This document shows positions 29,158 through 64,000 of a stretch of 64,000 nt of DNA, in pieces (position 1 is the first letter of the stretch; each line of letters starts with the position of its first letter). The DNA is from a virus (lineage: Duplodnaviria; Caudoviricetes). The position numbers were made by a program, and so were the translations under genes. The notes beneath the pieces are model-generated. The model saw only the letters and a list, made by a program, of their open reading frames with translations, was not told the origin of the DNA and did not search any database. Where the stretch lies: positions 1,316-65,315 of the IMG/VR virus record IMGVR_UViG_2852574111_000002; one strand, written 5' to 3'.

Positions 29158-29164
29158 GGCCGCC

Positions 29165-30497: not shown

Positions 30498-30502
30498 CGC
30501 TG

Positions 30503-31708
30503 TCAGGAGGTCGCCATCTTGAGCTTGCGCAGCGCGCGAGCCTGAACCACGCCGGCGCCGGTGCGGCGGGTGGCATGGATACGGGTGATGCCCTCGGTGG
30601 CGCGGATGTACGGGTTGACGAGGATCGACAGCGCCAGGCGGTCGACGATCCGGTAGGCCGTGGCGAAGTCGCCGAACAGGATCGGAAAGGTGCCGGCGGC
30701 GACATCGGGCATGTCGACGGCTTCGACCACAGGGCGGCCGAGGATCATTTCGGGCTGGCCGGCCTGATAGGAGGGCTGCCAGAGATAGTTGCCCTGGCCG
30801 TCCTTCATGGTGCGCAGCTTGGCCAGCGTGCCGCCGTTCATCAGCCAGGAGCCACGGGCACGGTACGCCGCCGGCAGCGCGTACATCAGCGCGATGAGCT
30901 GATCGGCGGAGAGGGTCGTCGCGTGGCCGTTCAGCGTCTCGGCGATGCCTGCCGCGGTGAGCAGGCCTTCCGGCTCCAGCACACCATTGCCGGAGACGAA
31001 GGCGAGGCCTTCCTTCTGGCCGAAGTCCTCGGCGAACGCGAGGCGGGTTTCGGCTTCCGCCGTACCGCCGGAATCGGCGAGCAACTGATTGGAGAAGTCG
31101 ACGAAGGTGTTCACCTCCCGGATCGGGATTTCCACCTGGCCGAAGCTCGGCTCGCTGCCCTCCTGAGGCTGCGTCTCGCCCTTCCATTTTGCGTTCGTCC
31201 GGCCCGTCCGGCGAGGATATGACACGGCCGGCGCCGTGGTGGTGCGCACCGTGGCGAGGGTGCGGATGGGCGAGAACTCGACGATGTCGCGGACGAACTC
31301 GGTCGACATCTCGGTCGGCGCCAGATAGCCGCCCTGCGTGTCCGACGAGACGGTGAGCACCTTCAGCTCGGCTTCCGGCGCGCGGTCGCCTTGGCGCAGA
31401 TAGGTGGCGAACGCCTTCTGCTCGGTGCTCGGCTCGCCCTTGGTCTCGCCGGTGCCGTTCGGGCGGTTGCCCTTGGCCTCCAGCTTGTCGAGCCGCTCGG
31501 TGAGCTTCGACACCGGATCGTCCTTCGGCTCCGGCGTGGTGCCCTTGCCCTCCAGTGCGGTGATGCGGTCGCCCAGCGCCTTCTGGCCGTCGGTGACGGT
31601 CTTGGTGAGAGCGTCGAGCGCCTTGGTGACGACCTCGCTCGGATCGTCATTGTCGCCCTTCAGCTCGACCGCGCCGGGCGCCAGCACATGCAGGCAGGTA
31701 TGCTTCAT
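30503..31708 (-). CDS. Major capsid protein, HK97 family (satellite)
   Basis: GGYLAP, LMNGGTL..L..MKDGQGNYLWQ, ILFGDF..Y.IVDR. Confidence 0.93.
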   Translation of the reverse strand: MKHTCLHVLAPGAVELKGDNDDPSEVVTKALDALTKTVTDGQKALGDRITALEGKGTTPEPKDDPVSKLTERLDKLEAKGNRPNGTGETKGEPSTEQKAFATYLRQGDRAPEAELKVLTVSSDTQGGYLAPTEMSTEFVRDIVEFSPIRTLATVRTTTAPAVSYPRRTGRTNAKWKGETQPQEGSEPSFGQVEIPIREVNTFVDFSNQLLADSGGTAEAETRLAFAEDFGQKEGLAFVSGNGVLEPEGLLTAAGIAETLNGHATTLSADQLIALMYALPAAYRARGSWLMNGGTLAKLRTMKDGQGNYLWQPSYQAGQPEMILGRPVVEAVDMPDVAAGTFPILFGDFATAYRIVDRLALSILVNPYIRATEGITRIHATRRTGAGVVQARALRKLKMATS

Positions 31709-31710
31709 CG

Positions 31711-32214
31711 TCAGCTTCCTCGAATGGCCGCTTCCGCGCGGCGGATGGATTCGGCGAGGGCGAAGGCTCCCGCCGCGGACTTGGCGGAAGTGACCTTCGC
31801 GCCGGGGTGCATGGGCGCGCTCACCAGCGACACCTCAAAAAGCTCAAGCGCCTTGATGGTCCGGCCGCCGCCGCTGCGGGCCGCCGCCTTGCGGGTGACG
31901 AAGCCGATGGACAGGCCGCGCACCGCGCCGGCCTTCACCAGCGCGCGGACCTCGCGGGCGCGCGCCACCTCGTCGACGAGGAGCCGGCCGGCGACGTGCA
32001 GGCCGTCCGCCTTCTCCTCCACCCGGTCCCACGCCCCGACGGGATCGTTGAGGTCGTGGCCGAACAGCATGGGCAGCGGCAGCTTGAGGCCCTTGAAGGC
32101 GCCCGGTTCGATCCAGTCGCCGATGCGATCGGGCGCGCCGAACTTCCATGCCAGGCCGGAGATCGCCCCGCTTTCGTCCGCCAGCACCTTGGTCTCGAAG
32201 AAGGCGCGTTCCAT
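31711..32214 (-). CDS. HK97 prohead protease (satellite)
   Basis: GLSIGF, LFEVSLV..PM. Confidence 0.9.
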   Translation of the reverse strand: MERAFFETKVLADESGAISGLAWKFGAPDRIGDWIEPGAFKGLKLPLPMLFGHDLNDPVGAWDRVEEKADGLHVAGRLLVDEVARAREVRALVKAGAVRGLSIGFVTRKAAARSGGGRTIKALELFEVSLVSAPMHPGAKVTSAKSAAGAFALAESIRRAEAAIRGS

Positions 32215-33395
32215 CAGTCTTCCTCGCGGCGGGCCGGCCCGGTGGTGCGGGTGGTCACGGTGACGTTGGGATTGGCGTATTCCTCGCCGCCGGCGCGCGG
32301 CGGCAGGTCGAGCCAGTCGCGGCCCTCATTCGGGTTCAGCACCCGCGCGGAGATGAGCGAAGAGATCGCCGTCGCGCGTTCGGTAAGGCTGGCGCGGGTG
32401 AGGTCGTCGCGATCGAACAGGATCCGGTACTCGCGCCGCTCTTCCGGCGTGAACAGCGCCCGGCTTAGGGCGCCCTCAAGCGCGCGCAGCCACGGCTCCA
32501 GCGAGTAGGTCAGGAACTCCTTGCCCATCTGCTCGGAGTTGGACCAGGTCGCGCGGTCCAGCTCGTAGAGCATGGACGGCGGCACACGGAAGGCGCGGGC
32601 GATCTCGACGATCTGGAATTTTCTCAACTCGAGGAATTGCGCGTCGGTCGACGCTAGCGTCAGCTGCGTGTACTTGGCGTCATCGTCCAGAACGGCGGTG
32701 CCGCCGGCTTTCCCCGGGCCATGCGCCGCGTTCCAGCCTTCCTTGGCCCGCCGGGCGCCCTCCGGTGTGAGCTTGCCCTTGAAGGAGATGACGCCGGCCG
32801 GGCGACCGCCGTTCTTGAAGAGCCCGCCGGCGTGCGCCTCCATGATCTTGGCGACGCCGATGGCGTCCGCTGCCAGCGACAGCGGGCACCGCGCAAAGGG
32901 CGGGCGCAAATGCACCACGTCGTCCGCCGAGACTGGGACATTGTTGATGCGGAAGCTGGGCTCAAGCCGTCCGTCGCCGGAATAGTCGACCGTGAAGTGC
33001 GCCGGTTCATAGCGCACCAGCTCGATTGTGCGCCCATCCACCTTGTTCGCGAGCGCCAGCGCGCCCTTGTCGCTGATCAGCGCGGCGGCGACCATGTCGC
33101 GGATGAACTCGAAACGCGACGTCCAGTCGTTTGGGCGATCGGCGAGCAGCCGCGCCGCAGGATGTTCTGGCGCCTCGGCTTCCGTGCCGCCTATCCGGTG
33201 CATGACCCTCAGCTCGAGGCAAGCCGCGGGTTCCGAGATCAGCCGGATCGCCGACTGCGCTGCCGGCACAGTCAATGCCTGAGCCGCGCCAACGGACAGG
33301 CCGGAGGGCAGCGCGCCGAGCAGCGCTTGCAGCTCCGAATCCGGCGCCGCTAGGCTCTTCGTCGTCCTGAACCATCCTGAGAGCCGCTGAAGCAC
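32214..33395 (-). CDS. Portal protein, HK97 family (satellite)
   Basis: F.NG.RP.G, DAQFLE.RKFQI.EIARAFRVPP. Confidence 0.92.
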   Translation of the reverse strand: MLQRLSGWFRTTKSLAAPDSELQALLGALPSGLSVGAAQALTVPAAQSAIRLISEPAACLELRVMHRIGGTEAEAPEHPAARLLADRPNDWTSRFEFIRDMVAAALISDKGALALANKVDGRTIELVRYEPAHFTVDYSGDGRLEPSFRINNVPVSADDVVHLRPPFARCPLSLAADAIGVAKIMEAHAGGLFKNGGRPAGVISFKGKLTPEGARRAKEGWNAAHGPGKAGGTAVLDDDAKYTQLTLASTDAQFLELRKFQIVEIARAFRVPPSMLYELDRATWSNSEQMGKEFLTYSLEPWLRALEGALSRALFTPEERREYRILFDRDDLTRASLTERATAISSLISARVLNPNEGRDWLDLPPRAGGEEYANPNVTVTTRTTGPARREED

Positions 33396-33456
33396 GTCTG
33401 ACCTCGACTAACCTACTGACAAATATTGAAAAACCCTATTTGGCCTCTATCTCGCG

Positions 33457-33478
33457 CGGTGGACCCCAAGCGGTCCGG
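33457..33478. other. Putative cosN core of the satellite
   Basis: CGGTGGACCCCAAGCGGTCCGG, dyad GGACC-N6-GGTCC, intergenic upstream of portal; 18/22 identical to helper 52445-52466. Confidence 0.65.
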
Positions 33479-33623
33479 CGCCCCTACGGCAAAGTTGCCG
33501 ACCGCCCCCCGTCTGGCGTCTCGGTGGCCTGCTCTCCGCCGCGGAGAGGTGAACTTTAGGCATGCTCCAGATGTGCGCCGCGTCGCTCATGGTTGTCCAT
33601 CCCCTTATGTCACTAAACTTAAG

Positions 33624-33824
33624 TCAACTTCGGTCATCTTCGGACTTGCGAGAAGATATCCACGCATCAAGCTCATCCTGATACGCGCACAGCGGCGACG
33701 TTCGACCTGTCGCGAGGCGAAACACCGGCAGGCCTGAGCTCGCCGCCAACCGATGCACTGTCTTCTGGGATACCTCCAAGTATCTCGATATCGCCCACGC
33801 CGTCTTGATGACACGCCGTTGCAT
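33624..33824 (-). CDS. Small HTH DNA-binding protein (excisionase/AlpA-like)
   Basis: AISRYLEVSQKTV.RL...LPVF...ELDAW. Confidence 0.7.
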   Translation of the reverse strand: MQRRVIKTAWAISRYLEVSQKTVHRLAASSGLPVFRLATGRTSPLCAYQDELDAWISSRKSEDDRS

Positions 33825-33877
33825 TCGCCTCTGCTCCTCGTCGAGCCGCGCCCTATAGACCGCAGATATAGAAGGGG

Positions 33878-33997
33878 GTGTACTTTTGTAGACTAGGGGT
33901 GCCTCAGCGCGATCAATGGCTTAGAGCCGAGGTGGTGTACAATTGTAGACCTATGGCAGTGTACAAATGTGAACCGTAGAGGTCTACAAATGTACAC
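33878..33997. promoter_or_regulatory. Putative satellite replication origin with four 16-bp iterons
   Basis: GTGTAC-W4-GT(A/G)(G/A)AC at 33878, 33935, 33959 and inverted at 33982; abuts the stop of the putative rep. Confidence 0.7.
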
Positions 33998-34462
33998 CTA
34001 TTCATCCGACGGCTTGGCGGCATCGGTCGAATACCGCCGCCACTCATCAGTCGGGCTTTCCCATGTCCAGCTATGTGGGCCTGTCTGGTCCCGCGTGGCG
34101 TAGAAGGTGAGCCGGAAACGGCTCATCTCGGTCATGGTGGTGCCCCTGCGCCCTCCCCGCTCAACCGACACGAGCCCACGCTGCACGGCTTCTGCGATGG
34201 CGGCAGGGATGTAGCGACGGGCGATGCCGTAACCTTCAAGCTGGCGGTAGGTGGCGGACAGGCGACCGTTTTCCTGTCCCGCGTTCGCCATGTGCTCGAT
34301 TGTCAGAAACTCGATGAGCCGCACGCAGTTGATCGACCTGCCGCGCCATGCCTCCGACGACATGAGGTCAATGTCCAGCCATACCCAAGGGCGTCCCTCT
34401 GGTGGGCCGGCGGCATCCTTTGCACGCCCGGTCTGGCGCCGCCGCGACCTAGGAGGGCTCAA
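33998..34462 (-). CDS. Putative winged-helix replication initiator
   Basis: WL..DLMSS.AWR, ENG.L.ATY, I..A..RGLV; iterons directly downstream. Confidence 0.6.
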   Translation of the reverse strand: MSPPRSRRRQTGRAKDAAGPPEGRPWVWLDIDLMSSEAWRGRSINCVRLIEFLTIEHMANAGQENGRLSATYRQLEGYGIARRYIPAAIAEAVQRGLVSVERGGRRGTTMTEMSRFRLTFYATRDQTGPHSWTWESPTDEWRRYSTDAAKPSDE

Positions 34463-34697
34463 ACGGCAACTCGCCCTTGCGACGAGCCTCCGCCAAGGCC
34501 AGGCACACCGCGTCGGCGAAGTCTGGCAGCCGATCCATGGCGAAAGTGATGCCAGTCTTGCTCGGCCTCATATCGCCGTCGCCGGCGTCGAACCACACGC
34601 GGGCGCTGAACACGGCCCGGCCGTTGAACTGCCCAAGCGTTACGCGGATTTCTTCGCGGCTGTTCTTCTTCACCGCGGCAACCACAACGTCGTTCAT
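34449..34697 (-). CDS. PC4/p15-family ssDNA-binding protein
   Basis: KNSREEIRV.L..FNG...RVWF..GD.RPSK.GI. Confidence 0.8.
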   Translation of the reverse strand: MNDVVVAAVKKNSREEIRVTLGQFNGRAVFSARVWFDAGDGDMRPSKTGITFAMDRLPDFADAVCLALAEARRKGELPFEPS

Positions 34698-34945
34698 GAT
34701 TGTGTCTCCCCTGCGTGGATCGCGACGAGCTTGAGCTCGGTGGCGATGTCGACGGCTCTGTTCACTTCGTCTGGCGTGAGATCGGGCCACCGATCGTGCA
34801 TGGCCGTCGCGATGCGCTGCGGATCGCTCCATGGGTCCCCGGTGGGTGCTGCCTCTTCCACGAGCCAGCGAGCCACCTCTGGCACCCGATCCCGGTTTGC
34901 GGGGTCTCCGGCCTCAGGCGGGCCTACGTTGACGTCAGCGCCCAT
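34694..34945 (-). CDS. Hypothetical protein
   Basis: Coupled within the satellite early operon. Confidence 0.5.
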   Translation of the reverse strand: MGADVNVGPPEAGDPANRDRVPEVARWLVEEAAPTGDPWSDPQRIATAMHDRWPDLTPDEVNRAVDIATELKLVAIHAGETQS

Positions 34946-34947
34946 GT

Positions 34948-35991
34948 TCAGCCCGCCCACGCCGGATCGTTCGCCAGATGATCGGCGAGCACCTGAAGCC
35001 CCTTCGGCGTGACGACCGCCTGCGTGCCGATCACCGTCTCGCCATCGCGCTCATAGGAGACCGGCCGATGGTCCATCAGCCCGGCCCTGCACTTCTCCGC
35101 GTGCGCCAGCCAATCGCCCTTGCCGCCCCGCCGGTATATCCAGCGGTGCCGGTAGAGCTTGGCGAAGAATGGCTTCACGGGATGCGAGAGAGCCTTCGCC
35201 GCGTCGGTGATGCACATGGCGCCGGCGGCCGTTCCGATCCGCGCCAACGCACCCTCTGCTTTCGCGAGAGCGGCTTGCGCGGTTGTGGCCTCTTGATGCC
35301 AGTGCGAGAGCACAGCAGCGACCACGCGCGGATCGGCGGGGTTGATCAGGCTCGCCGGCTCCGCCTGCCGCGCTTCCAACTCCATCCAGCGATCGATGAT
35401 CCGCGCGCGGAGCTCCACGCTGTAGCCCGAAACGAGGATCAGGCACTCCCGCTTGGGCAGCAGGAACACCTTGGAAGGACGGCCGCCGGCGGACGGTTCG
35501 GACTTTTCCTCAAGAGTGAGGGAAAGCCCCTCGGCGAGGTTCTTGATGTCCCGGCGCACGTTGTCGTGCTCCTTGCCGGTCAGCTCCGCGATTTCGCGGG
35601 ACGACATGGTGAGCGGCTCGGCATCGGGCACAATCCCCGGTGAGGCCACCACACCGCCGGCCGGCGGGCGGCCCGGCTCCAGGCTGCGCTTGCGCGCTTC
35701 CCGATCGAATGCTTCGGCGTAGCGTTCCCGGCGCTTGCCAGCATTCGGCCCCGTCAGGCCACGGGCGAGCATCAGGAAGCCCTCCCGCGTCATCCAGTAG
35801 AACCGGCGCCCCGGCTCGCCGACCTCGCGGAAGTGGCCCGCCATATCGGCCCCGTTCTCGCCGAGGAGATCGTCCACCGCGCGGAGGATCAGAACGTGAT
35901 CGCGCTCAAAATAGGCGGCCACGTCCCGACTGGCAGCCATCGGCACGCTCTTCACGGTCGTCACCACCGGTAGCAGGAAGGAATCAACCAT
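34948..35991 (-). CDS. Rha-Rha-ANT(KilAC) antirepressor-type regulator
   Basis: Two Rha-like domains (SRDVA.YF..DH; MSSREIAELTGKEHDNV) and C-terminal CITDAAK..VTPKGL. Confidence 0.82.
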   Translation of the reverse strand: MVDSFLLPVVTTVKSVPMAASRDVAAYFERDHVLILRAVDDLLGENGADMAGHFREVGEPGRRFYWMTREGFLMLARGLTGPNAGKRRERYAEAFDREARKRSLEPGRPPAGGVVASPGIVPDAEPLTMSSREIAELTGKEHDNVRRDIKNLAEGLSLTLEEKSEPSAGGRPSKVFLLPKRECLILVSGYSVELRARIIDRWMELEARQAEPASLINPADPRVVAAVLSHWHQEATTAQAALAKAEGALARIGTAAGAMCITDAAKALSHPVKPFFAKLYRHRWIYRRGGKGDWLAHAEKCRAGLMDHRPVSYERDGETVIGTQAVVTPKGLQVLADHLANDPAWAG

Positions 35992-36202
35992 CGGTCGAGC
36001 CCTCCGGCTTCCGGGCCTTGGCCTCAAGATCGGCGAGCCATGCGGAAAGGCTCGCGCGGCGGGCGCAGACATTTCGCCCGATTTTGAAAGCGGGAATTTC
36101 CCCCGTGGCAACGCGGTGCTTTGCCTGCCGAGGCGTTAGCCGAAGGTATTTAGCTATGGCCTCAAACCCGTAAAGCAGATCGGATTCGTCGTTCGTATCC
36201 AT
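35984..36202 (-). CDS. AlpA/excisionase-like HTH DNA-binding protein
   Basis: DLLYGFEAIAKYL..PAFKIGRNVCARRASLSAWL; first gene inside the right att site. Confidence 0.78.
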   Translation of the reverse strand: MDTNDESDLLYGFEAIAKYLRLTPRQAKHRVATGEIPAFKIGRNVCARRASLSAWLADLEAKARKPEGSTDG

Positions 36203-36457: not shown

Positions 36458-36874
36458 TCAGTCCGATACGGGCTCAAAGAAGCGGATGCGTCCCCAGCCC
36501 TGCATGCGCAGCGCGGGGACCGGATCGAAGCGAGAGCCGGAGCTCTCGTCGCAATGGGAGACCAGGCGTTCGGGGGCGAGCCACACGCCGATATGCGCGG
36601 CGCGGTCGGCGCGCCCCATGGCGACCAACGCGCCGTCGGCGGCACTGATCAACCCCGGCGCCGGCGGCACCGCCTCGCGCCACCTCTGGCGCTCCGGATG
36701 GCCTTCTATGGTCTCGATCATCCAGCGCCAGCCGGGATGCTCCGGCAGAACGACGTCCGGAAGGTCGCGGCCGAACAGCTCGCGCTGGATCCGCTTCGCG
36801 TGGTGCCAGCACGAATATTCCGGCGACCAGCGCCGACCGATGAGGCCGGCGAGGAAGGCGGCGCGGTCGATCAT
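36458..36874 (-). CDS. Tail assembly protein K-like (NlpC/P60)
   Basis: Y.CW....RIQRE.FG; HIGVW..VSHC. Confidence 0.8.
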   Translation of the reverse strand: MIDRAAFLAGLIGRRWSPEYSCWHHAKRIQRELFGRDLPDVVLPEHPGWRWMIETIEGHPERQRWREAVPPAPGLISAADGALVAMGRADRAAHIGVWLAPERLVSHCDESSGSRFDPVPALRMQGWGRIRFFEPVSD

Positions 36875-37407
36875 CGCACCAATCCCGGGAAGTTGGCACG
36901 GGTGTAGACCCGGCGCGGGAACTTCTTGTTGCCGAGGTTCGACAGTCTGGCCGTGCCGGTCACCGAGGAACCGACGACCTTCACCGAGGAGATCAGGAAC
37001 TCCACCGGGCCGTAGATCGGCTCGGAAGGATCATCGTCGCGATATTCGCGATAGATCGCCTTGAGATCGGCATTGTAGCCGACGGCCGCCTCGAGATAGG
37101 CGGTCAGCTCGCGCGCCACGTTGTCGATGGTGATCTGCGTCTGCGGAATCTGGCCCTGCGCCAGCTCGGCGAAGAGCGAGGTGAAGGCCGAGGGCTGGAA
37201 GGTCGCCATGGCGCCCGGCGTGAACACCGCCGAGGTCTCGATCCCGAGCGTGCGCGCCATGACGTCATGCACCAGGCGTGCCGGCACCTCATTGCCCTCG
37301 TCGTCCTGAATGGCCGGGTGTTGAAGCTCCAGCGTGACATAGACGCTGAATGCCGTGGTACAGGAGGCCTCAGCCTCTTCCCACGCGGCGTTGAGCGGCA
37401 CGCTCAC
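36871..37407 (-). CDS. DUF1833-like minor tail protein
   Basis: TLELQHP, ITIDNV.REL, KFPRRVYT..FPGL; position after the distal tail gene. Confidence 0.72.
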   Translation of the reverse strand: MSVPLNAAWEEAEASCTTAFSVYVTLELQHPAIQDDEGNEVPARLVHDVMARTLGIETSAVFTPGAMATFQPSAFTSLFAELAQGQIPQTQITIDNVARELTAYLEAAVGYNADLKAIYREYRDDDPSEPIYGPVEFLISSVKVVGSSVTGTARLSNLGNKKFPRRVYTRANFPGLVR

Positions 37408-37796
37408 GGCGACACCGGGACGAGTTCGGCCGGCAGGACCAGCATAGAGAATGACACCATGGTCTCGGCGCCGATCGAGCCGTACTGGATGCCGCCGGCG
37501 CCACCGATGATCTGCACGACGCGGGTCGTATAGGTCTGGCCGTCGAGCGACACCGGCATGAGGAAGCGCGTCGCGCCGTCTCCAATCGTCGCGAGGAAGT
37601 CACCGAAGGCGACCATCTGCGCGGCGGTCAGGCCGCGCCCCCATCTTGCCGTGCCGACACGGTCCCCGGGCCGCCGCCGCTGGCGGGTGTCGCCCCCCTC
37701 CATCTCGGTGGAGATTGCCTCCCGACCCGGAACATAGCCCCATGCGGAACGCTCCGGGCGGAATGGGACCGTGGCCGGCCATTCAGCGTATGCCAT
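37404..37796 (-). CDS. Distal tail-like protein
   Basis: WP..VP.RP, MEGG..RQRRR, GA.RF.MPV. Confidence 0.7.
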   Translation of the reverse strand: MAYAEWPATVPFRPERSAWGYVPGREAISTEMEGGDTRQRRRPGDRVGTARWGRGLTAAQMVAFGDFLATIGDGATRFLMPVSLDGQTYTTRVVQIIGGAGGIQYGSIGAETMVSFSMLVLPAELVPVSP

Positions 37797-40700
37797 CAAC
37801 CAAGATCCCCGCGACGCAAGCCGTAACGGCGCTCAACAGCCGTAGCGACGTCTCCGCCATCCTCGAACTGCCGGCTCACCTCATCGGCGGCGACACGGCG
37901 CATCATCAGCTCGATGTCGATTCCGCCATCGGCCCCCATCGTGGCCCGCGTCCGGGCGGTGTAACCCGCCGGGGCATTTCTGACATGGACCGAGATGCGG
38001 GGCGGCGCCATGGGCCGGCTGTTGTCATTCGCCGTGCCACGGAACGCCCGCAGCGCGTCGGCGACACCGACGCCGCCGCCATCGGCATAGCCGCGGAGAC
38101 CGCGATGCAATGCGTCGAGGTTGCCGACGCCGGCGCTGCGGACGGCCTCCTGCGAGAAGACGAACTCGCCCCGGTGCACGAGGCCGGCGGTCTCGTACTT
38201 GCCGCCCGCACCGGTGTAGCCGCCGATATCGTATAGACCCTTCCCGGAGGCCGGCGCATAGCCGGCCAGAGACGGGCCGGACGATGCTGGTGTCCCGAAG
38301 CCGAGGAAGCCGGCCACGATGCTGCCCAAGGTGTTGCCGCCGCCGGTGCCCGGTCCGAAGAGGCTCGAGGCGAGGTTCTGCATCGCCATGTCCAGAACGA
38401 CATTAAGCGCGCGCTTGGCGGCGTTCTCCAGCGCCTCCATGGCATCAGCGCCGTCCAGGATGTCGCTGACGAAGCCGGAGAGCGCGTCGCCGGCGATATC
38501 CCGGGTGGTGCTGAGGATGGCATTCAGCCGGAGCGCCTGTGCTTCGAAGGAATCCATGTCGACGGGAAGGCCAGCGGAGCGCAGTGTCGAGGCGATCTGC
38601 TGATCGATGGGACCCCGGCCGAGCTGATCGCGCTCAAACTGGATATCCGCCAACAGGTTGAGACGCGCCGTCAGCTCCGCCTTGCGGCCAAGCTCGGCGT
38701 TCTGCTGCTTCAGCAGTTCAAGCTGGCGTTCATCGACCGAGGTGCCGTTGGCTTCGGCCTCACGCTTCAGTTCCCAATACGCCTGGAAGTTCGCCCGGAG
38801 CTCGGCGACCTCTCCTGCTGTCTTCCCGATGAGCTCAGCTTCAAGTTCCTGCGCCGCGACGCTCTGCTGCGCGCTGAGCAGGCGATCCCGGCCGGCTTGG
38901 TCAAGCGCTACCGTCGCCTGCGTGAGCTCGCGCGTCGCCGCCGCCTCGGCGCGGGCCGCCGCGGTCTTGCCGTCGGCGCCTTCGGTCTCTGCGCGGTAGC
39001 GCTCAAGTGCCGCCGACGCAGCTGCACGCTGTTCCGGCGTGATCGCCTTCAGCAGGGCGATCTCAAGTTCCTGCTCACGGCGAACGACCTCGGCCTGCGG
39101 AACAAGGTTCCCATAGGCGTCGGTCATGGACCGGATTTGGTTCGTGACGCCCTGAAGCGCGCTCTCCTGCGCCGAGGCGTCGCCAACACCCTCGCGCAGT
39201 GCCTCCCTCAGCTTCGCCTGCTGCTTCTGGAGGTCAATGAGCTGCTGCACGCGCGGATCGCGCGTCGAGACGATAGAGCGGGCCTCGGCGTCGAGAAGGT
39301 TCCGGTCGGCTATAACGCCCTTGGTCTCGATATCGGCGCGTTCGGCGTAAGCCTTCGCCAGTTCGGCATTGTTCGTTCGGAGACGCTCGACGAGACCGCC
39401 ACGATAGCGACCTGCCGACGTGCTGTTGAGCGCCCTATCGAGGTCCGCCCGCTCCTTCTCAAGAGCGGCGATGCGCTCCCCGAGCGACGGTCCGGTCATC
39501 AGGGCGTCGATGCCCTGCCCCATCGCAGTGTAGGCGCCGGAGGCGGCGTTCCGGATGGACAGCCAGGCGCGGCCGAGAAGCGTCAGGTTGTCGTTCGCCG
39601 CGGGCAGCGTCTGATTAAGGCGCTGAAGCAGTACCACCGCGGCTTCGTGGGTGCGGTTGCTGTTCGCGAGGTCGCGGATGTAGCGGATCGTCGTGCCGTC
39701 GAGGAACAGCAGCTTCTCGTTGAGCGCCTCGGCGCCCTCGGCCGGCCGAGCGAATGCCTCCGAAATCTGATCGGACGCGGCGCCGAGATCCTGCTGAGTG
39801 ACGGCAGCATAGCGCTTGGTGGCGTCTACCAAGCCCTCATACAGGTCGGTGCCGATCTTTCCGGTGGAAGTCATCGCGGCAACGATCTGCCGCGCCTCGG
39901 CGACCGTCGCATCGGAGGAATCCGCCGCGGCGACGGCTATCGCCTTCAGGTCGTCGAGAGTGGCGCGGGTCGCCCTGCCCCGCCCCTGCAAGGCAGCCTG
40001 CAGCTCCTTTTCGCCGTTCACCCAGCTGGCATAGGACGCCACGGCCGCAACGCCGACCGCCGCAATCGCGGTCACCGCGAGGCCCGCCGGCGTCACCAGC
40101 CCGCCGAGCGAGCCGCCGAGCGCCTGAATGCCGGCGACAAGGCCACCCTCACGGGTCGAAAGGATCTGATAGATCTGGCCGGCCTGCGAGGCGAACACCT
40201 GCATGGGCGGAGCGCCCATGGCCATCATGGTGATGATGTCGTTGACCTGGAACGACAGGTTCGACAGGTCGAAGGTGCTCAGCGTGCGGCGCGCCTGCTC
40301 CAAGCCGCGGAGCATCACGACCTGTTCGGCAAAGGCGTTCTTGGTCCGCTGGATGGAAGCGGCACGTTCGGTTTCCGTCAGGATGCCGAGTTTGGCGGCA
40401 TGATTGATCTCGTCGAGGGTCTCCTTGTAGACGCGCTGCACCTGCGCGAGCGGCAGGTACTTCTCCCGCAGGCGCTGGATTTCATTGCCGACGGCAGCGA
40501 TGTCGGCGGCGCGGGCTTCAGTGCTGAAGTCGTCGCGAACGCCGAGCACAGCGTTGTAGCTCTGCTGCGCGGCTGCGGCGGCCGCGATGGCCTGCGTCTC
40601 CTCTTGGACGCGGCGCGTCATCTCCTGCTGCGCGGCCGAAACGATCCGATGCTTGGCATGCATCAGGTCGAGGGTTCTGGCGTACTCCTCCGCAGTGATC

Positions 40701-40981
40701 GCACCCTGCTGAAGGGCACGATCCAGCCGCTGATGCTCGCGCGCGAGCGTCTGGATCGTGCGGAACTCTTCGTCGTACTTCCGGCGGACGGTATCGGCCG
40801 CATTCGAGGCAGAGATCTGGCGCTTCGTCACCGTGTCGGTGACGGTTGCCATGCTCTCGCCGCTACGGGCGACATTGCCCTGCGCCGCCGCCACCGCATT
40901 GAGGTCCGCGGCCGCCTTGTCGGCACCACGGCTCTCATACTGCGTGACAACGCGCCGGATCTGTTCGACGGTAATTGCCAT
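37796..40981 (-). CDS. Tape measure protein
   Basis: About 1060 aa, Ala-rich helical; NLSFQVNDI..M..GAPPMQVFASQ.GQI; C-terminal GGYTG.GGKYE.AG.VHRGEFV. Confidence 0.92.
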   Translation of the reverse strand: MAITVEQIRRVVTQYESRGADKAAADLNAVAAAQGNVARSGESMATVTDTVTKRQISASNAADTVRRKYDEEFRTIQTLAREHQRLDRALQQGAITAEEYARTLDLMHAKHRIVSAAQQEMTRRVQEETQAIAAAAAAQQSYNAVLGVRDDFSTEARAADIAAVGNEIQRLREKYLPLAQVQRVYKETLDEINHAAKLGILTETERAASIQRTKNAFAEQVVMLRGLEQARRTLSTFDLSNLSFQVNDIITMMAMGAPPMQVFASQAGQIYQILSTREGGLVAGIQALGGSLGGLVTPAGLAVTAIAAVGVAAVASYASWVNGEKELQAALQGRGRATRATLDDLKAIAVAAADSSDATVAEARQIVAAMTSTGKIGTDLYEGLVDATKRYAAVTQQDLGAASDQISEAFARPAEGAEALNEKLLFLDGTTIRYIRDLANSNRTHEAAVVLLQRLNQTLPAANDNLTLLGRAWLSIRNAASGAYTAMGQGIDALMTGPSLGERIAALEKERADLDRALNSTSAGRYRGGLVERLRTNNAELAKAYAERADIETKGVIADRNLLDAEARSIVSTRDPRVQQLIDLQKQQAKLREALREGVGDASAQESALQGVTNQIRSMTDAYGNLVPQAEVVRREQELEIALLKAITPEQRAAASAALERYRAETEGADGKTAAARAEAAATRELTQATVALDQAGRDRLLSAQQSVAAQELEAELIGKTAGEVAELRANFQAYWELKREAEANGTSVDERQLELLKQQNAELGRKAELTARLNLLADIQFERDQLGRGPIDQQIASTLRSAGLPVDMDSFEAQALRLNAILSTTRDIAGDALSGFVSDILDGADAMEALENAAKRALNVVLDMAMQNLASSLFGPGTGGGNTLGSIVAGFLGFGTPASSGPSLAGYAPASGKGLYDIGGYTGAGGKYETAGLVHRGEFVFSQEAVRSAGVGNLDALHRGLRGYADGGGVGVADALRAFRGTANDNSRPMAPPRISVHVRNAPAGYTARTRATMGADGGIDIELMMRRVAADEVSRQFEDGGDVATAVERRYGLRRGDLG

Positions 40982-41033
40982 GAGCAGGTCCTGCCGTTCC
41001 CTTGCGGGCACGGTTCCGGTGGCGGGGGTGAAG

Positions 41034-41387
41034 ATGAGACTGGCGGCCGTGACCGCGCTGCTATTCGCAGCGACGTTTGGATCGGCGCGCGCCGACAATA
41101 TCGAGACCGCGGCGAACGTGTTGGTGTGTGCCGATCCGCTAAGTGTGAAGGACGCCTACAAGGCGGCCAGCGGGCGCGATCCCGCGTGGCTGAAAGAGCT
41201 CGGCTGCGTCTATGTCGCCGGCGGGATTCCCGGAGTTCTTCTCGACGGTGACTATATCGATGGCACGTGGCGCGTGAGGCTGAGGCCGCCGGGCCGCGAC
41301 GGTACTACGGTGTACGGCTGGTCCTGCTCTTTCCGATTGCCCGGCAAGACAGAGGCTTTCGGCTGCGGCAGGAGCAGCATCTACTAG
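41034..41387 (+). CDS. Small secreted Cys-containing protein (moron)
   Basis: Signal peptide MRLAAVTALLFAATFGSARA; antisense between chaperone and tape measure genes. Confidence 0.65.
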   Translation: MRLAAVTALLFAATFGSARADNIETAANVLVCADPLSVKDAYKAASGRDPAWLKELGCVYVAGGIPGVLLDGDYIDGTWRVRLRPPGRDGTTVYGWSCSFRLPGKTEAFGCGRSSIY

Positions 41388-55892: not shown

Positions 55893-56810
55893 TTACGCGC
55901 CGGCCAGTGCGTCTTCCACCTTTTCCCAGAGGTCGCGGCGGACGGTCGCTTGCTCGCCTTCCTCGTCACGCCACGCCTTCACCTTCGCCTTCCGCTCCAC
56001 GTTACGCCCCGGGATCTTGTAGAAGTCCGCGAGGTGGTCGAGCGCGATCTTCAACACGTCGATCAAGACGGCGCTCCGCTGTGCTGCGTTCTTGCGCGCC
56101 ACCAGCTTGAGCGCGATGTCCTCGATCCTGTCGCCGGCGAGTTCGCCCTCGATGACAACCGCGACAACGAACGGCGCGAACCGGTGGCCGAGATACACCA
56201 CCGCCTGACGCCACCTATGGCGGGCCGCAGCCTGACGCTCAGACGCAGGCATGCTGCCAGCGACGTACCCACTCCCGCCGCCGCTGGACCGGCTATGATC
56301 GATGGAGGCGACCGGCGAAAGGCCGGCATCGTACCAATCGTCGAGGAAGCGCTGGGCAGCATCAGCCTGCCGCTGGATCAGGCTCTTACGGGAGATGAGC
56401 ACTTCCAGCGGCGATGACGTCACGCGCGTCGCCCGGCCGGCCTTTACCACCGCCACGGCATCCGCCTTCACCAGACGCTCCATCGGCGCCGTGTCTTCCT
56501 TCACCTCACCCCCGAAGTAGCGGCGCATTTCCTCCCGCTTCTCGCGGCCGTCCAGGTCGACGGCCTTGCGCACATGCCGCTGGCGCTTTTCCCTGGCGAT
56601 GACGGCCGACTTGGCATCTGCCGCCGAAGCCTCGCGGCGATCCATCCGCTCGATCGCCGCGTCCACCGGCGCAATCTGTTCCTTCGGCTCTGCCCGAGCC
56701 CGACGGGCCGCCGCCTTCCGCGCCGCATGGCTTTTCAGGTCCACCCTTGCCAGTCGCGTTTCGCTCACGTCGATCCGCACCGCCGGCTTCTTCGTCTCTT
56801 TCGCCACCAT
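55893..56810 (-). CDS. DUF6456-like protein, putative late transcription activator
   Basis: SPL..L..RK.L..RQ.DAA.RF..DW; last early gene before the late operon. Confidence 0.65.
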   Translation of the reverse strand: MVAKETKKPAVRIDVSETRLARVDLKSHAARKAAARRARAEPKEQIAPVDAAIERMDRREASAADAKSAVIAREKRQRHVRKAVDLDGREKREEMRRYFGGEVKEDTAPMERLVKADAVAVVKAGRATRVTSSPLEVLISRKSLIQRQADAAQRFLDDWYDAGLSPVASIDHSRSSGGGSGYVAGSMPASERQAAARHRWRQAVVYLGHRFAPFVVAVVIEGELAGDRIEDIALKLVARKNAAQRSAVLIDVLKIALDHLADFYKIPGRNVERKAKVKAWRDEEGEQATVRRDLWEKVEDALAGA

Positions 56811-56825: not shown

Positions 56826-57827
56826 CTATCGTTCGCCTGCCGCCTGTTGCCGTCTGTCCGGCCCGTCACGGCTCGGTGGCCATGCGCTCGGCAGCAATCG
56901 CCCTGTGACCTTGTGCGGCCGGCCAGCGAACGGCCGGGCCGGGTAGACGAAGGCGCGCAGCGGCAGGCCTGCCTCTTCGGCGACCGCCTGCCATTCCCGC
57001 CATTCGGGCGTGTCAACCTCGACGATGACGCCGTGCGCGAAGTTCGGCCCCAGCGCCTGCCGCAGCGCCGCCACGGCCGGGCTGTCCGGCGGCCTCGGTG
57101 CCAGTGACGTCGCGAAGTTCGCGAAGATGTGCCGGGCGAGATAGGCGCTCGGATCGAGCATTTTCCGCGGCTTGGGTTTCTCCGCTGCGCACGCCGCCCG
57201 GTATGGCGCGATGGCGTCGACGGCTTTCCGCCTCTCGGTATCCGAAAGCTTGTTCCAATGCCGGCGCGGGGTGACGGTCGATGCCGTCGGCGGCGCGGCG
57301 TAGCGGCGGATGAACTCGGCGTAGAGCTCATCCTCCTGCCCTGACGAAGTCCCCTCGCCCACCGCCCCCTTGGGGGCTATGGGGGTGACCTTCGGTTCTT
57401 CTGACGGTTCTATGGGGGTGTCAGCAGTGAAACCCCCGGGGGTGTCAGCACTGACACCCTCCCCCTTGCTTCCTAGGGTGTCAGCCTGACACCCTCCCCC
57501 CGGAACGTCCCCGGAACATCCTTGCGCAGATGCAACATCATCTGGCGTGAGAACTCGGCTCAGCACCAAGCGATAGTGGTTGGCCTTCTGCCTGCCGCTG
57601 GCTTCACGCACCTCGGTCTTCTGGACAAGGCCGCGCTCGATCAGCCACCCGATGCGACGAAGCACGGTGCTCTTCGACTGGCACGATTCCTCGCAGATGC
57701 GCGCGATGGTCGGCCAGCACTCGCCGGTCTTCTTGTCCGCATAGTTGGCGAGCGAGATCAGCACCAGCTTGGTCGCCGCGTCGGTGATGTACTGATCCAG
57801 CGCCCAGGCCACGGCTTGCACACTCAT
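56826..57827 (-). CDS. Replication initiator (lambda O-like, N-terminal HTH)
   Basis: MSVQAVAWAL..KLVL..LANYAD..G.CWP; internal iterons. Confidence 0.82.
   Translation of the reverse strand: MSVQAVAWALDQYITDAATKLVLISLANYADKKTGECWPTIARICEESCQSKSTVLRRIGWLIERGLVQKTEVREASGRQKANHYRLVLSRVLTPDDVASAQGCSGDVPGGGCQADTLGSKGEGVSADTPGGFTADTPIEPSEEPKVTPIAPKGAVGEGTSSGQEDELYAEFIRRYAAPPTASTVTPRRHWNKLSDTERRKAVDAIAPYRAACAAEKPKPRKMLDPSAYLARHIFANFATSLAPRPPDSPAVAALRQALGPNFAHGVIVEVDTPEWREWQAVAEEAGLPLRAFVYPARPFAGRPHKVTGRLLPSAWPPSRDGPDRRQQAAGER
57380..57500. promoter_or_regulatory. Putative helper replication origin (iterons inside the initiator gene)
   Basis: GGGTGTCAGC at 57416, 57440, 57476; inverted CTGACACCC at 57451, 57486. 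Confidence 0.7.
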
Positions 57828-59628: not shown

Positions 59629-60237
59629 TCATGCCGGCACCTCGGCGTGATCAAACTTTGCCGCCTCGTTGCCCCAAGTTGCCCAGCCGGCGCGCGACTG
59701 CCGCGAGAACACCGAGACGCGGCGCGCCTCCGGCCACGCCTTCTCCACGGCCAAGTAGAATTCGTCGGGCTTGCGGGAATGCTCGCGGGCGAGGCCGTCG
59801 ATCGCGTCGGCTTCTAGCGTCTCGACCAGGTTGGGGAAGCCGGCGCCCTTCCATGACGAGCCGGACAGCCGCGCGATTATGTACGGCTCGTGGAGTGAGC
59901 GGGCGACATAGCCCGTACCCCAGCGCATCTTCCCGCTCGGTGTCCGCTTGGTCCATCCGCCACCGGTCACCGGCAGCAGCCCCCAACCGCGGATCACCTC
60001 GACATGGGCGCCGATCGCCACCAGCGGCCAGGTGCACCACATGATGCACACCCCGCCCGGCGCGAGCAGGTTGCCCACTGGCAGCGCCTTGATGTCGTCC
60101 AACGACATCGTCTGGTACTGTGCCTGGGCAGACTTCTTCTCTCCCTTGGCCGAGCGAAGGGCGAAGGTCCACGCGGGGTCGATCTCGGCGACATCGTAGG
60201 CGAACATCGACAGGGGGGAGAACGGCCAGCCGGTCAC
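59629..60237 (-). CDS. MT-A70 family N6-adenine methyltransferase
   Basis: DPAW motif IV variant, YQTMSLDDIKALPV, MWCT.P, HSRKPD. Confidence 0.85.
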   Translation of the reverse strand: MTGWPFSPLSMFAYDVAEIDPAWTFALRSAKGEKKSAQAQYQTMSLDDIKALPVGNLLAPGGVCIMWCTWPLVAIGAHVEVIRGWGLLPVTGGGWTKRTPSGKMRWGTGYVARSLHEPYIIARLSGSSWKGAGFPNLVETLEADAIDGLAREHSRKPDEFYLAVEKAWPEARRVSVFSRQSRAGWATWGNEAAKFDHAEVPA

Positions 60238-61631
60238 GCCGCTTCCTCCTGCAGCATGGCCTCGAGCGACTTCACCTCCGCTGCGACCTCAGTGCCGGAA
60301 GTCACCAGTCCGTCAATTTTGTGAACTGCGTGGTGCACGGTCTTGTGGTCGCGACCGCCGAAACGTCGGCCGATCTCCGGCAGTGATCGCAGGGTCAGCG
60401 TCTTAGCGAGGTACATCGCAATCTGGCGCGGCTTCACCACGTTCGCGGTGCGACGCTGCGAGAGGATGTCGGTGCGGCTGACGTTGTAGTGCTTCGTCAC
60501 CACCCGCATGATGTCGTCGATGCGGATCCTCTTCGGCTCCTCGGGGCGGATGAGGTCTCGAAGCGCCATCTCCGCCACGTCGGGCGTGATCCCGCGGCCG
60601 GTCAGCTGGTTGTGGGCCAACAGGCGGTTGAGAGCGCCGTCGAGGTCCCTCCCCGTCTTCCCGCACCGGCGGGCGACATAGCGGAGAATGTCCGGCTCGA
60701 TGCTAAAGCCCGGATACTGCTGGGCGAGCACGGCGAGGCGGGCTGTCAGGATTTCGAGCTTGAGCTCGTCCTCCAACGGGGCGATCTCGACGACAAGGCC
60801 GCCCGCCATGCGGGAGCGTGCGCGCTCGTCCATGGCGTCGAGCTCGGCGGGCGAGCGATCGGCGGCGAGCACCACCTGGCGCCGGCACGCGATCACGGCG
60901 TTGAGCGTGTAGGCGAACTCCTGAAGGACGCTCTTGCCCTGCAGGAATTGCACGTCGTCGATGATGAGCGTGTCGGCTGTGCGCAGGGCATCCTGGAATG
61001 CCGCCGCCGATTGGCCCTTCAGGGCGGCGACGAAGCCGAACATGAAGCGCTCGGCCGTCAGGTAGAGGACGCGGCGACCGCCCGCCTCGCCGGCAGCGGC
61101 GACGGACTGAAGCAGGTGCGTCTTGCCAAGGCCGACGCCGCCATGGACGAACAGCGGGTTGAACACCGCATCGCCGGCCGACGGGACGTCTGCGACCCTC
61201 TTCGCCGCGGCGTGGGCGAGGCGGTTGGAATCGCCGAGCCTGAGGGTCTCGAAGGTCAGGCGGGGATCGAGGGGCGAGCCAAGTGGCGTGTCGACGGCGT
61301 GCATCGCGGGGGCGACCGGCACCAGAGGCGGCGCGGGGATGCTCACCCGCGCGACCGGCGACGGCGGCCGGTTCAGCGTGACCTGCCGGACATTGATCAC
61401 GAGGCGCAAGTCGGGGTCGATGGTCTGCCAGATCGTGGTCAGCAACGCTTCATAGTGCTGCGCGATCCAGACCTTCAGGAATCGGGTCGGGACCGACAAC
61501 ACGACAACGCCTTCAGCGCATCCCTCGAATTCCAGGCGGGTGAACCAACTCGCATAGATCTCGGCGCCCACCCGCGCCTTCAGCATGGCGCGAAGGCGGG
61601 TCCATGTCTCGGCATCGACGGTCGTGTCCAT
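60234..61631 (-). CDS. dnaA: Full-length DnaA paralogue carried by the prophage
   Basis: Domain I (W..L...VG..Y.SWF), Walker A GGVGLGKT, Walker B IDDVQFL, domain IV RQIAMYL..SLPEIG..FGGRDH; phage rather than dnaN/recF context. Confidence 0.9.
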   Translation of the reverse strand: MDTTVDAETWTRLRAMLKARVGAEIYASWFTRLEFEGCAEGVVVLSVPTRFLKVWIAQHYEALLTTIWQTIDPDLRLVINVRQVTLNRPPSPVARVSIPAPPLVPVAPAMHAVDTPLGSPLDPRLTFETLRLGDSNRLAHAAAKRVADVPSAGDAVFNPLFVHGGVGLGKTHLLQSVAAAGEAGGRRVLYLTAERFMFGFVAALKGQSAAAFQDALRTADTLIIDDVQFLQGKSVLQEFAYTLNAVIACRRQVVLAADRSPAELDAMDERARSRMAGGLVVEIAPLEDELKLEILTARLAVLAQQYPGFSIEPDILRYVARRCGKTGRDLDGALNRLLAHNQLTGRGITPDVAEMALRDLIRPEEPKRIRIDDIMRVVTKHYNVSRTDILSQRRTANVVKPRQIAMYLAKTLTLRSLPEIGRRFGGRDHKTVHHAVHKIDGLVTSGTEVAAEVKSLEAMLQEEAA

Positions 61632-61657
61632 CGCGGCCACCTCAATGTTGGAGATTG

Positions 61658-61927
61658 TCAGCCCACCATCCCGAGCGATTGCAGATAGAGGTCGACGATC
61701 GCCTCGTGCTCGGCGCGCTGGTCGGCGTCCTGGCGACGGATCTTGAGGATTTCCTTCAGCGCCTTCACGTCGAAGCCGGTTCCCTTGGCTTCGGCGAAGA
61801 CGTCCTTGATGTCGTCGGAGATGGTCTTCTTCTCCTCCTCCAGGCGCTCGATCCGCTCGATGAAGGAGATCAGCTGCTCCTTCGCGAAGTCGGCGGCAGA
61901 CGGCTCGTCATTCGGTAATTCGGACAT
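61658..61927 (-). CDS. DUF2312 / GapR-like nucleoid-associated protein
   Basis: [34 protein letters not shown]. Confidence 0.88.
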
Positions 61928-61959
61928 GGCAAGGCCTCGATGTTTAGGCGGGCTGGGGA

Positions 61960-62208
61960 TCAGCGCGCGAAAAGGTCCGCCACCGGCGCGGGCGGCCGCG
62001 CGGCGGGCTTGGGCTGCTTGAGTTCGGTAGCGATGAGCGCTGAGGTGATCTCGACGAGCTCTTTGCTGGTCTTGGCGCGGCGGTCGTGCGCCTGCTTCAG
62101 CCGCTTGTATTCGGCGATCTTGTCAGCGCGGGCGGCGGCCAGCTTGCGCCGACGTATCTCCGTCGGTGTCGGCTTTGGGTCGGCCGTCTTGAGGTAGGTG
62201 CGCGGCAT
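61960..62208 (-). CDS. Small basic hypothetical protein
   Basis: 82 aa within the early operon. Confidence 0.5.
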
Positions 62209-62375: not shown

Positions 62376-62885
62376 TCATTGCCCGCCTCCCTGCTTAGGA
62401 AGCCGGCTCACATTGCTCGCGCCCGCGGCCTTGATCTCCGCGCACTCTTCCCGCAGCTCATCGACAGCGCGCGCCAGATCGGCGGCTTCCCGGTCAATCC
62501 GCTCCGCATCGGTTGCGGAGAAGCGCCCGTCCGCGCGGGCTTCAGCCACGGCATGCGTGACATCGGCGAATTCGCGCATGACCGCGGTGTGGCGGGCGTC
62601 GATGTCGACCCTCTTGCCGCCATCGTCCTCACCGGACCGCGTCAGCTCATGGCCGCTATAGTCCGCCATTACCTTGGTGACGTACGGGCGGCCGCAATCC
62701 GCCTCCAACACCATGGCCGAGAGAAGCGGGATCAGGTCCTTGTCCTGCTGGTAGCGGTAGACGCTGCCGGGGTGGACTCCGAGGAGCTCGGCACTGCGTT
62801 CGGCGCCGCCGCATTCGGTGATCAGGTCGCGAGTCGCGGCGACGATGCGCAGGCGCCAGGCACGCGGGAGTGGGTGCTCAGCCAA
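62376..62885 (-). CDS. CII-like regulatory protein
   Basis: ATRDLI..CGG.., LEADCGRP.VT; directly after cro; start uncertain. Confidence 0.6.
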   Translation of the reverse strand: MAEHPLPRAWRLRIVAATRDLITECGGAERSAELLGVHPGSVYRYQQDKDLIPLLSAMVLEADCGRPYVTKVMADYSGHELTRSGEDDGGKRVDIDARHTAVMREFADVTHAVAEARADGRFSATDAERIDREAADLARAVDELREECAEIKAAGASNVSRLPKQGGGQ

Positions 62886-63189
62886 GGTGCCCCTCCCCTG
62901 AGAATTCGACCGCACCATTCGCGGCGGTATCGACCGATGGGACGTGCGAAGACGAGGGGGACGGGCGACGGACATCAGCCGGCCAGACGGCATCAACCGG
63001 CCAGTTGTCCGAGAACCATTGAATGATCTCGTCATACTTCCTAGCCGTGAAGGATCGGCCGGTTGCGATGCGAGAGAAGAAGCTGCCATCGTTGGCGGCC
63101 ATGCGGCCCACCGTCGAAAGCTCGAAGCGGCGTGCGGCTGCGAACGCTACGGCGCAGGAATGCAGATTGGTTCGAAGTTCCTCTTCCAT
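62878..63189 (-). CDS. Cro-like small regulator
   Basis: Divergent from cI; STVGR..NDG.FF.RI..G..T......WFSDNWP..WP. Confidence 0.72.
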   Translation of the reverse strand: MEEELRTNLHSCAVAFAAARRFELSTVGRMAANDGSFFSRIATGRSFTARKYDEIIQWFSDNWPVDAVWPADVRRPSPSSSHVPSVDTAANGAVEFSGEGHLG

Positions 63190-63274: not shown

Positions 63275-64000
63275 ATGGAGAGGTCACTAAAAATCGTCGT
63301 CGAAGATCGCCTGCGAGTGCTGGATCTCGGACCTATTGAGGCCGCGACCGCGGCTGGGCTTGAGCGGACATTCATTCGCGACATCGTCGAGGGACGGAAG
63401 GAGACAATCCGCCAGTCGAGCTTGGCAAAACTGGCGGCTGCGCTGAGATGGTCCCCGGCTCAGCTAAACGCGGCACTAGCCGGGCAGGAGCCCATGGATG
63501 CTGACGAGATCAGGCCCGTTGACAGCCCCCTCATCCCAGTTCGCGTGCAAGGCATTGTCGAGGCTGGCGCGTGGCGCGCCGTCGCAGAATTCGATGATGT
63601 CCAAGATGAGCGCGTATTCGACACTCGTGACCCTGATTTTCCACAGGCCAGCCTCTTCGCCAGCGACGTAGCAGGCGACTCCATGAACGACCTCAAGCCG
63701 CGCCCGATCATGCCAGGAGACCGCATCACCTGGGTACGGTTCGACGATCTCGGAGGGCGTGTCCCGCTGCGGGACGGCATGGTGGTGGTCGTGGAACAGT
63801 TAAAAGACGGCGGCCATCTACGAGAACGATCGGTGAAGCAGCTTGAGCTATTCGAGGATCATTACGAGTTCCACCCGCGGTCGACCAACCCGAAGCACAA
63901 GCCGATCGTCGTCGATCGGGACTTCGAGGCCGACGACGGCAGGACAGTCGAGGTTATCGGCTTAGTGCGCAAGGTGATGAACACGATCCCTATATCGTAA
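63275..64000 (+). CDS. cI: CI-like repressor (HTH plus S24 peptidase)
   Basis: N-terminal HTH, VEAG cleavage-site motif, GDSM catalytic Ser, SVKQL Lys. Confidence 0.88.
   Translation: MERSLKIVVEDRLRVLDLGPIEAATAAGLERTFIRDIVEGRKETIRQSSLAKLAAALRWSPAQLNAALAGQEPMDADEIRPVDSPLIPVRVQGIVEAGAWRAVAEFDDVQDERVFDTRDPDFPQASLFASDVAGDSMNDLKPRPIMPGDRITWVRFDDLGGRVPLRDGMVVVVEQLKDGGHLRERSVKQLELFEDHYEFHPRSTNPKHKPIVVDRDFEADDGRTVEVIGLVRKVMNTIPIS

Follow-up and report, generated by a model that had tools for sequence, protein, structure and literature searches.

A prophage carried on the 64,000-nucleotide stretch of DNA that we analyzed (the whole of which we call the window) encodes a full-length DnaA whose DNA-reading helix departs from the canonical sequence at three positions, equivalent to T435K, L438H and R442H of Escherichia coli DnaA. 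The triple change, which we refer to as the K type, is neither a sequencing artefact nor a singleton. It may well have altered the DNA specificity of the helix rather than marking its decay, a reading that we hold with moderate confidence from comparison of sequences.

The source record is a 65.3-kb IMG/VR provirus, of which the window covers almost all. The features of the early operon are as follows:

63275-64000, (+) strand: cI-like S24-peptidase repressor, divergent, continuing past the window end
62376-63089, (-) strand: cII-like activator, which heads the early operon
61960-62208, (-) strand: conserved 82-aa ORF, whose TGA stop begins the single TGATCCCCA at 61954-61962
61658-61927, (-) strand: GapR-like nucleoid protein gene (Pfam), directly upstream of dnaA
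60234-61631, (-) strand: phage dnaA, 465 aa counting from the ATG at 61631
60234-61640, (-) strand: long form of the phage dnaA ORF, 468 aa, with a GTG start at 61640
59629-60237, (-) strand: MT-A70 DNA methyltransferase, whose start overlaps the dnaA stop

The operon runs in the order cII-like gene, 82-aa ORF, GapR, DnaA and methylase, with the repressor divergent from it and an HTH_36 O-like initiator, an HNH gene and the terminase downstream of the methylase. With these neighbors on both sides, dnaA is a prophage gene, as the preliminary description had it, and sits in a prophage early operon rather than being a chromosomal initiator encoded at oriC. The ATG at 61629-61631 has GAGG upstream and matches the starts of relatives, and it is likelier to be the dnaA start than the GTG at 61640; phage residues are numbered here with the GTG start as the first residue. 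The dnaA stop (60234-60236) overlaps the methylase start (GTGA). In the lysogens (X1 and X2), there is a second contig whose match is confined to the conserved part of domain IV (~87% identity); it represents the host's own chromosomal dnaA. The host is an Ancylobacter-type soil or plant bacterium.

Full-length Pfam matches give the phage protein the four-domain organization of DnaA (DnaA_N, linker, AAA+ Bac_DnaA and Bac_DnaA_C):

61425-61610, (-) strand: domain I (DnaA_N, residues 11-72; Pfam, 60 bits)
60786-61271, (-) strand: AAA+ ATPase domain (Bac_DnaA, residues 124-285; Pfam, 166 bits)
60315-60521, (-) strand: domain IV helix-turn-helix (Bac_DnaA_C, residues 374-442; Pfam, 97 bits)

The AlphaFold model (12 sequences) has the expected DnaA secondary structure with a mean pLDDT of 72. 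Domain I retains the equivalents of W6 and F46. In the AAA+ domain, Walker A and B, sensor I and the arginine finger are intact, and the ATP residues K178, D235/D236, D269, R281/R285 and R334 are identical in the phage protein, E. coli and 118 chromosomal relatives. Pfam and the residue alignment thus agree with the earlier claim of a full-length DnaA with all domains and ATPase motifs in place. Among the DNA contacts, R399, R407, Q408, P423, D433, H434 and H439 are unchanged. Five of the six base-contact residues (R399, P423, D433, H434, T435 and H439) are kept, the sixth, T435, being Lys in the phage protein.

The changed residues lie in the recognition helix; their equivalences come from aligning the phage protein with E. 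coli DnaA and with 1J1V, the structure of E. coli domain IV:

60297-60347, (-) strand: recognition helix (residues 432-448 in the AlphaFold model), which reads RDHKTVHHAVHKI and carries K433, H436 and H440
60342-60344, (-) strand: K433 codon AAG, equivalent to E. coli T435
60333-60335, (-) strand: H436 codon, equivalent to E. coli L438
60321-60323, (-) strand: H440 codon, equivalent to E. coli R442

A Thr-to-Lys change had been reported for this helix; the AAG codon for Lys433 is confirmed, but Lys433 does not stand alone and is part of the coordinated triple T435K/L438H/R442H. The T, L and R at these positions are 100% conserved in the 118 chromosomal relatives, which show no variation at the helix positions changed in the K type. 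In the 203 columns that are ≥97% conserved among the same chromosomal DnaAs, the K pair (the window and one other phage, L002) shares just four changes, three of which fall within eight recognition-helix residues, spaced i, i+3 and i+7. Compared with the canonical sisters, the K type has nine DNA changes in ten helix codons. L438H places a polar residue where every canonical DnaA has a hydrophobic one. Position 442 is variable, being Glu in Bacillus subtilis DnaA and His in the viral HTH-only copy L215. In a survey of this residue in phage copies, all 34 other viral-contig copies surveyed (alphaproteobacterial) keep Thr.

Sutton and Kaguni reportedly found in 1997 that E. coli T435K loses specific box binding. 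Passages in three papers state that the recognition helix reads the TnCACA half of the DnaA box, in which T435 makes a base-specific contact (PMC9638019, PMC5742627 and PMC7561715, citing Fujikawa 2003), that R399 reads the TTA half and that T435M is defective in box binding (PMC5742627, PMC7561715 and PMC9638019); a passage in one of them describes R442 as a backbone contact (PMC9638019, citing Fujikawa 2003). Substitutions of E. coli T435 abolish specific box binding (PMC5742627), and a dnaA allele that includes T435K reduces initiation (PMC11695965).

The window gene has four close relatives (L002/L004, L003, L005 and L006), each on a viral or prophage contig in which the genes follow the same order. 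L002/L004 is an independent phage contig, 87% identical, with the same K/H/H helix, whereas L003, L005 and L006, at 83% identity, carry the canonical RDHTTVLHAVRKI. When 5.8 billion proteins were searched with the C-terminal 64 residues, L002/L004 was the only relative with the variant helix. The identical gene, with no differences, is present in isolates of a second study (X2) filed under a second organism label, and a plant metagenome contig that covers 60246-60414, helix codons included, has 0 differences. The preliminary description had allowed for a singleton, an artefact or decay. The triple in L002/L004, the X2 isolates and the plant contig rule out the first two; the third is largely ruled out by a gene-wide dN/dS of 0.22-0.28 within the phage clade and by the domain IV core (390-445), where the two K carriers differ by four synonymous changes and no nonsynonymous ones (hand-calculated Fisher value, about 0.004). 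This test of selection is shallow, since there are just two independent K-type sequences and their domain IV DNA is unusually alike (dS 0.10 versus 0.28 gene-wide). The reading frame is intact in all close relatives (five) and in about ten more distant phage copies. Selection on the phage dnaA is purifying, and the constraint on domain IV could stem from roles other than DNA binding.

Phylogenies that included host DnaAs were built in two ways. In IQ-TREE, the phage clade (100/100) nests within the chromosomal DnaAs of Ancylobacter/Starkeya, its stem being very long (1.26, compared with 0.03-0.16 for its neighbors), whereas FastTree, with more phage-type sequences, places the phage clades together and outside the chromosomal group. 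As the two placements differ, recent capture and an old phage lineage are both kept as options. Inside the IQ-TREE phage clade, the K pair is sister (96/95) to a canonical pair (L003 and L006; 98/97), and the K state is derived and shared.

A second phage-type DnaA clade, at 50-55% identity, contains L203 and P0240-P0247 and includes a prophage of Ancylobacter sp. IITR112 (at 1.86 Mb). Its module consists of GapR (in most members), DnaA, an N6_N4 methylase or PAPS-reductase-like gene and an HTH_36 O-like initiator, together with a NusG-like gene where annotated. An early-operon layout of short-linker full-length DnaA, usually with GapR before it, modification gene and HTH_36 O-like initiator was found in the window, L002, L003, L203, L242 and L244; L237 and L240 have it without GapR, and in L005 and L006 the same block matches the window at the DNA level. 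We propose that the window dnaA belongs to a phage DnaA family of Ancylobacter-group temperate phages, of which a literature search found no description. The conserved early module of this family is (GapR)-DnaA-DNA-modification enzyme, with the O-like initiator later, and its helices are of at least three types: (i) canonical, the majority, (ii) the K type and (iii) a cassette-swapped "N" type. The earlier remark that rhizobial phages more often have just the C-terminal HTH of DnaA holds for related phages, with 27 of 37 viral loci being HTH-only. INPHARED contained no bona fide full-length phage DnaA, the matches being short unannotated contigs or bacterial records, and PHROGs contained no full-length DnaA family. 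A family-wide hand count gave more than one Bac_DnaA match in about 45 of 151 genomes; this figure, from which IstB- or Hda-like ATPases are not separated out, was set aside.

Several observations concern the neighborhood of these genes. In the other K-type phage, a 401-aa beta-clamp (DnaN) homologue lies between GapR and DnaA (L002:8459-9664). A DNA methyltransferase (MT-A70 or N6_N4_Mtase) repeatedly follows the DnaA or domain-IV-only gene (L203, L205, L226, L237, L240, L242 and window 59629-60237), and the two genes of such pairs often overlap at their start and stop codons. The prophage DnaA of Ancylobacter sp. IITR112 (L244, 1.85-1.87 Mb) bears the annotation "chromosomal replication initiator protein DnaA". 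That genome has four DnaA_C matches (L244-L248): the chromosomal DnaA, the prophage DnaA, a 410-aa domain III+IV protein and a 129-aa HTH-only protein.

The K type is not the only remodelled helix. The N-type HTH, PRHMVAYLAR...RDHTTTLNSVRRV, includes Q408H and H439N and is present in four members of the second clade (P0240 and P0245-P0247). In L242 it forms a ~210-bp cassette, the rest of the gene being 93-100% identical to the canonical L203; the exchange, which converts a canonical phage DnaA to the N type, maps to L203:7173-7383 in comparison with L242. The K point substitutions and the N cassette exchange show that the DNA-reading module of phage DnaA has changed at least two times. Scans for the pattern DHKTVxHA showed that Lys is conserved in planctomycete AAA+ plus domain IV paralogues (RDHKTVQHAC) and in the short HTH proteins that Kiloniellaceae have besides a canonical DnaA. 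It is also found in several phage HTH proteins, two lineages of which also have His at 438. Lys at the T435 position is therefore compatible with a conserved function, yet marks proteins other than the canonical box reader. Gemmataceae MAGs (Planctomycetota; L194/L195 and L198/L199) each have two DnaA paralogues, neither with a canonical helix: a 466-aa four-domain form with GGRNHSTVVAGEK and a 334-361-aa form that lacks domain I and has GGRDHKTVQHAC.

Sites that a K-type helix might read were sought in the phage genomes. Canonical boxes (TTATCCACA, ≤1 mismatch) were scattered and unclustered in the window, L002, L003, L005, L006, L203, L237, L240 and L242. The clustered 8-mers and 9-mers enriched in both K phages were just the O iterons of the window and repressor operators. 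Where the 82-aa ORF ends, upstream of gapR, the K phages have TGATCCCCA, compared with TGATCCACA in L003 and L005; the canonical L006 has TGATCCCCG there, and the second phage clade has TGATCGTCA regardless of helix type. The single TGATCC(A/C)CA site upstream of gapR was rejected as a variant box: the K-phage motif is not enriched in the window (11 copies against 14.4 expected), and the site does not covary with helix type once further phages are compared.

The replication genes further downstream were compared in the same phages:

56826-57827, (-) strand: O-like replication initiator (HTH_36), with internal iterons at 57377-57500
55893-56810, (-) strand: DUF6456 protein, 305 aa, directly after the O-like initiator

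The phage does have an O-like initiator of its own with iterons, as had been described; these are copies of GGGTGTCAG, three direct and two inverted, inside the HTH_36 gene, and no DnaA boxes flank them. The initiator is a mosaic (window 56826-57827 compared with L002:15955-16974), with a C-terminal half common to all five phages and an N-terminal DNA-binding domain and iterons that differ in the window. L002, although of the K type, has the O type of the canonical phages. Co-adaptation of DnaA with the O-like initiator is not supported, as O/iteron type and helix type assort independently, and the link that the preliminary description had drawn between DnaA and an origin at 57380-57500 is not borne out. 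A partnership of the GafY/GafZ type with DUF6456 likewise found no support: among the five phages only the window has the gene, the four related ones, the other K type included, having an unrelated 231-aa protein after the O-like gene, and the HTH-only genes checked are not followed by DUF6456.

In the explanation that we favor, the phage-lineage DnaA is a regular member of the early replication module in temperate phages of Ancylobacter-group Xanthobacteraceae. In the K sub-lineage, the DNA-reading face of the helix has been remodelled while domain I, the ATPase residues, the arginine finger and the other contacts were kept. Arg399, in the minor groove, would still read the 5′ TTA half-site, and the 3′ TnCACA half would be read differently. 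We infer that DNA binding is retained with a new specificity. Such a protein would leave the canonical boxes to the host DnaA and work at private sites of its own. Once bound, it would presumably help to open or load helicase at phage DNA or serve as a transcription factor. The phage might use its DnaA to help its own origin, to drive or block host initiation, or for transcription; that DnaA is repeatedly found linked to a methylase, and in many cases to GapR, points to manipulation of replication.

An altered DNA-reading face fits best because the other contacts are kept, selection is purifying, sister phages have been re-specified in parallel and Lys is stable elsewhere. Weighing against it are the E. 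coli T435 substitutions that abolish box binding (PMC5742627), the polar residue introduced by L438H and the shallow test of selection. The search for sites found no cluster of canonical or variant boxes, and so a DnaA blind to boxes stays a serious rival, possible although somewhat unlikely. Here the helix changes would abolish specific DNA binding and the protein would act only through protein contacts, by poisoning or co-assembling with host DnaA oligomers or by titrating or recruiting DnaB through domain I, or it would bind single-stranded DNA through AAA+. This rival takes in the dominant-negative and helicase-recruiting roles offered in the preliminary description, whose third role, a re-specified initiator, is the one towards which the evidence leans. 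The loss of box binding in E. coli T435 mutants (PMC5742627) and the lowered initiation with the T435K-containing allele (PMC11695965) speak for it, as do the intact domain I (W6/F46), ATPase and arginine-finger residues, the want of a cognate site array on the phage and R442H, which would remove the backbone contact described in a passage of PMC9638019. However, a protein that no longer read boxes would be expected to drift, and the remaining base contacts and the domain IV core are identical in the two carriers; Lys at the T435 position is also conserved in several functional-looking families. All phage copies have also diverged at about 20 otherwise invariant positions, mostly in AAA+, which speaks against a smooth fit into host DnaA assemblies, and most sister phages are canonical, so loss of binding is not a general need of the phage role.

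At the other extreme, the substitutions might simply be tolerated, with canonical or weak alphaproteobacterial boxes (TTATCCACA/TGATCCACA) still read. The five retained base contacts and the variability of position 442 (Glu in B. subtilis, His in the viral HTH-only L215) would allow this. We consider it unlikely given that T435 and L438 are invariant in the 118 chromosomal and 34 viral relatives, that T435 mutants fail in E. coli (PMC5742627) and that neutrality is improbable for three changes stacked on a single face of the helix. Decay under relaxed selection, in which a captured host gene is being lost and the helix changes are early damage, could account for the long stem branch (1.26 versus 0.03-0.16) and for a dN/dS of ~0.25 that is probably above that of a typical essential gene, for which no chromosomal dN/dS was computed for comparison. 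It is very improbable: dN/dS is well below 1, the frame is intact in close and distant phage copies, the catalytic residues are all kept, the allele is identical in isolates under two organism labels and in plant metagenomes, and the gene holds its place in the module across phages that are 50% identical. Altered specificity remains our preferred reading.

Comparison with known systems places the K-type protein among relatives of several kinds. It resembles the chromosomal DnaA of Ancylobacter/Starkeya in full-length identity (62-65%), four domains, ATPase residues and most DNA-contact residues, and differs in its location in an early operon rather than at oriC, its shorter domain II linker, the ~20 otherwise invariant positions changed in all phage copies and the three recognition-helix changes. 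The E. coli T435 alleles (T435K of the dnaA(Sx) set, and T435M) affect the same position, T435K with the same residue; these are laboratory loss-of-binding changes in a canonical helix, whereas the phage Lys is natural, accompanied by L438H and R442H, present in two lineages and subject to purifying selection. To the same family belong the phage DnaAs with a canonical helix (L003, L203 and the Ancylobacter sp. IITR112 prophage), the full-length copies of which share the early module, and the domain-IV-only phage proteins such as that of Bradyrhizobium phage ppBeUSDA76-2, with their recurrent adjacency to a DNA methylase. Both groups, most of them HTH-only, keep RDHTTVLHAVRK, unlike the K type. 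Iteron plasmids and lambdoid modules, which pair Rep or O with host DnaA, likewise have an O-like initiator whose gene contains the iterons and exchange specificity between related elements (here the O-like N-terminal domain and the DnaA HTH), but this phage supplies DnaA itself and its iterons are without flanking DnaA boxes. GafA and GafYZ, GTA activators with a DnaA-like HTH and DUF6456, share the domain-IV-like HTH, and the window has a DUF6456 protein (PMC9638019); unlike in those systems, DUF6456 is missing from the four related phages.

Across these phages, DnaA-box recognition, which is otherwise fixed throughout bacteria, would be evolvable, with at least three types (canonical, K and N) arising by point change or by ~210-bp cassettes and yielding private orthogonal initiator-site pairs or rewired host replication, and the K type would be a natural, functional specificity based on T435K. 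We put this forward tentatively, as a possibility short of an even chance. DnaA and its 9-bp box are among the most conserved bacterial protein-DNA pairs. If the proposal is true, natural reading-helix variants kept by selection show how DnaA specificity can shift and offer ready-made orthogonal pairs of initiator and site. Prophage DnaAs annotated "chromosomal replication initiator", as in Ancylobacter sp. IITR112, can mislead origin prediction. DnaA, DNA methylase and GapR all belong to the host replication and cell-cycle machinery, and the question arises why phages of alphaproteobacteria time and again carry DnaA or its HTH together with a DNA methylase, often with GapR as well.

The tail module of the prophage appears to harbor a second, nested integrative element (window 19242-36111), which lies between minor tail genes (36458-37799), which lie next to a tape-measure-like gene of 1100 aa (37796-41098), and a J-like tip gene (15948-19100). 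Its features include:

19242-20540: integrase
about 22-26 kb: low-GC cargo
26494-28101: second large terminase
34948-36111: Rha/ANT antirepressor

The element also has candidate head genes, judged by size and position. It lacks tail genes and may therefore be a small prophage or a satellite that forms capsids. An intergenic stretch within it (33877-33998) contains four copies of the 17-bp quasi-palindrome GGTGTACWWWTGTAGAC, three direct and one inverted. The preliminary description had listed 33878-33997 as an origin linked to DnaA; this link is not supported, as the repeats belong to the nested element, have no resemblance to DnaA boxes and resemble dimer operators. They look like operators or an origin of the nested element itself.
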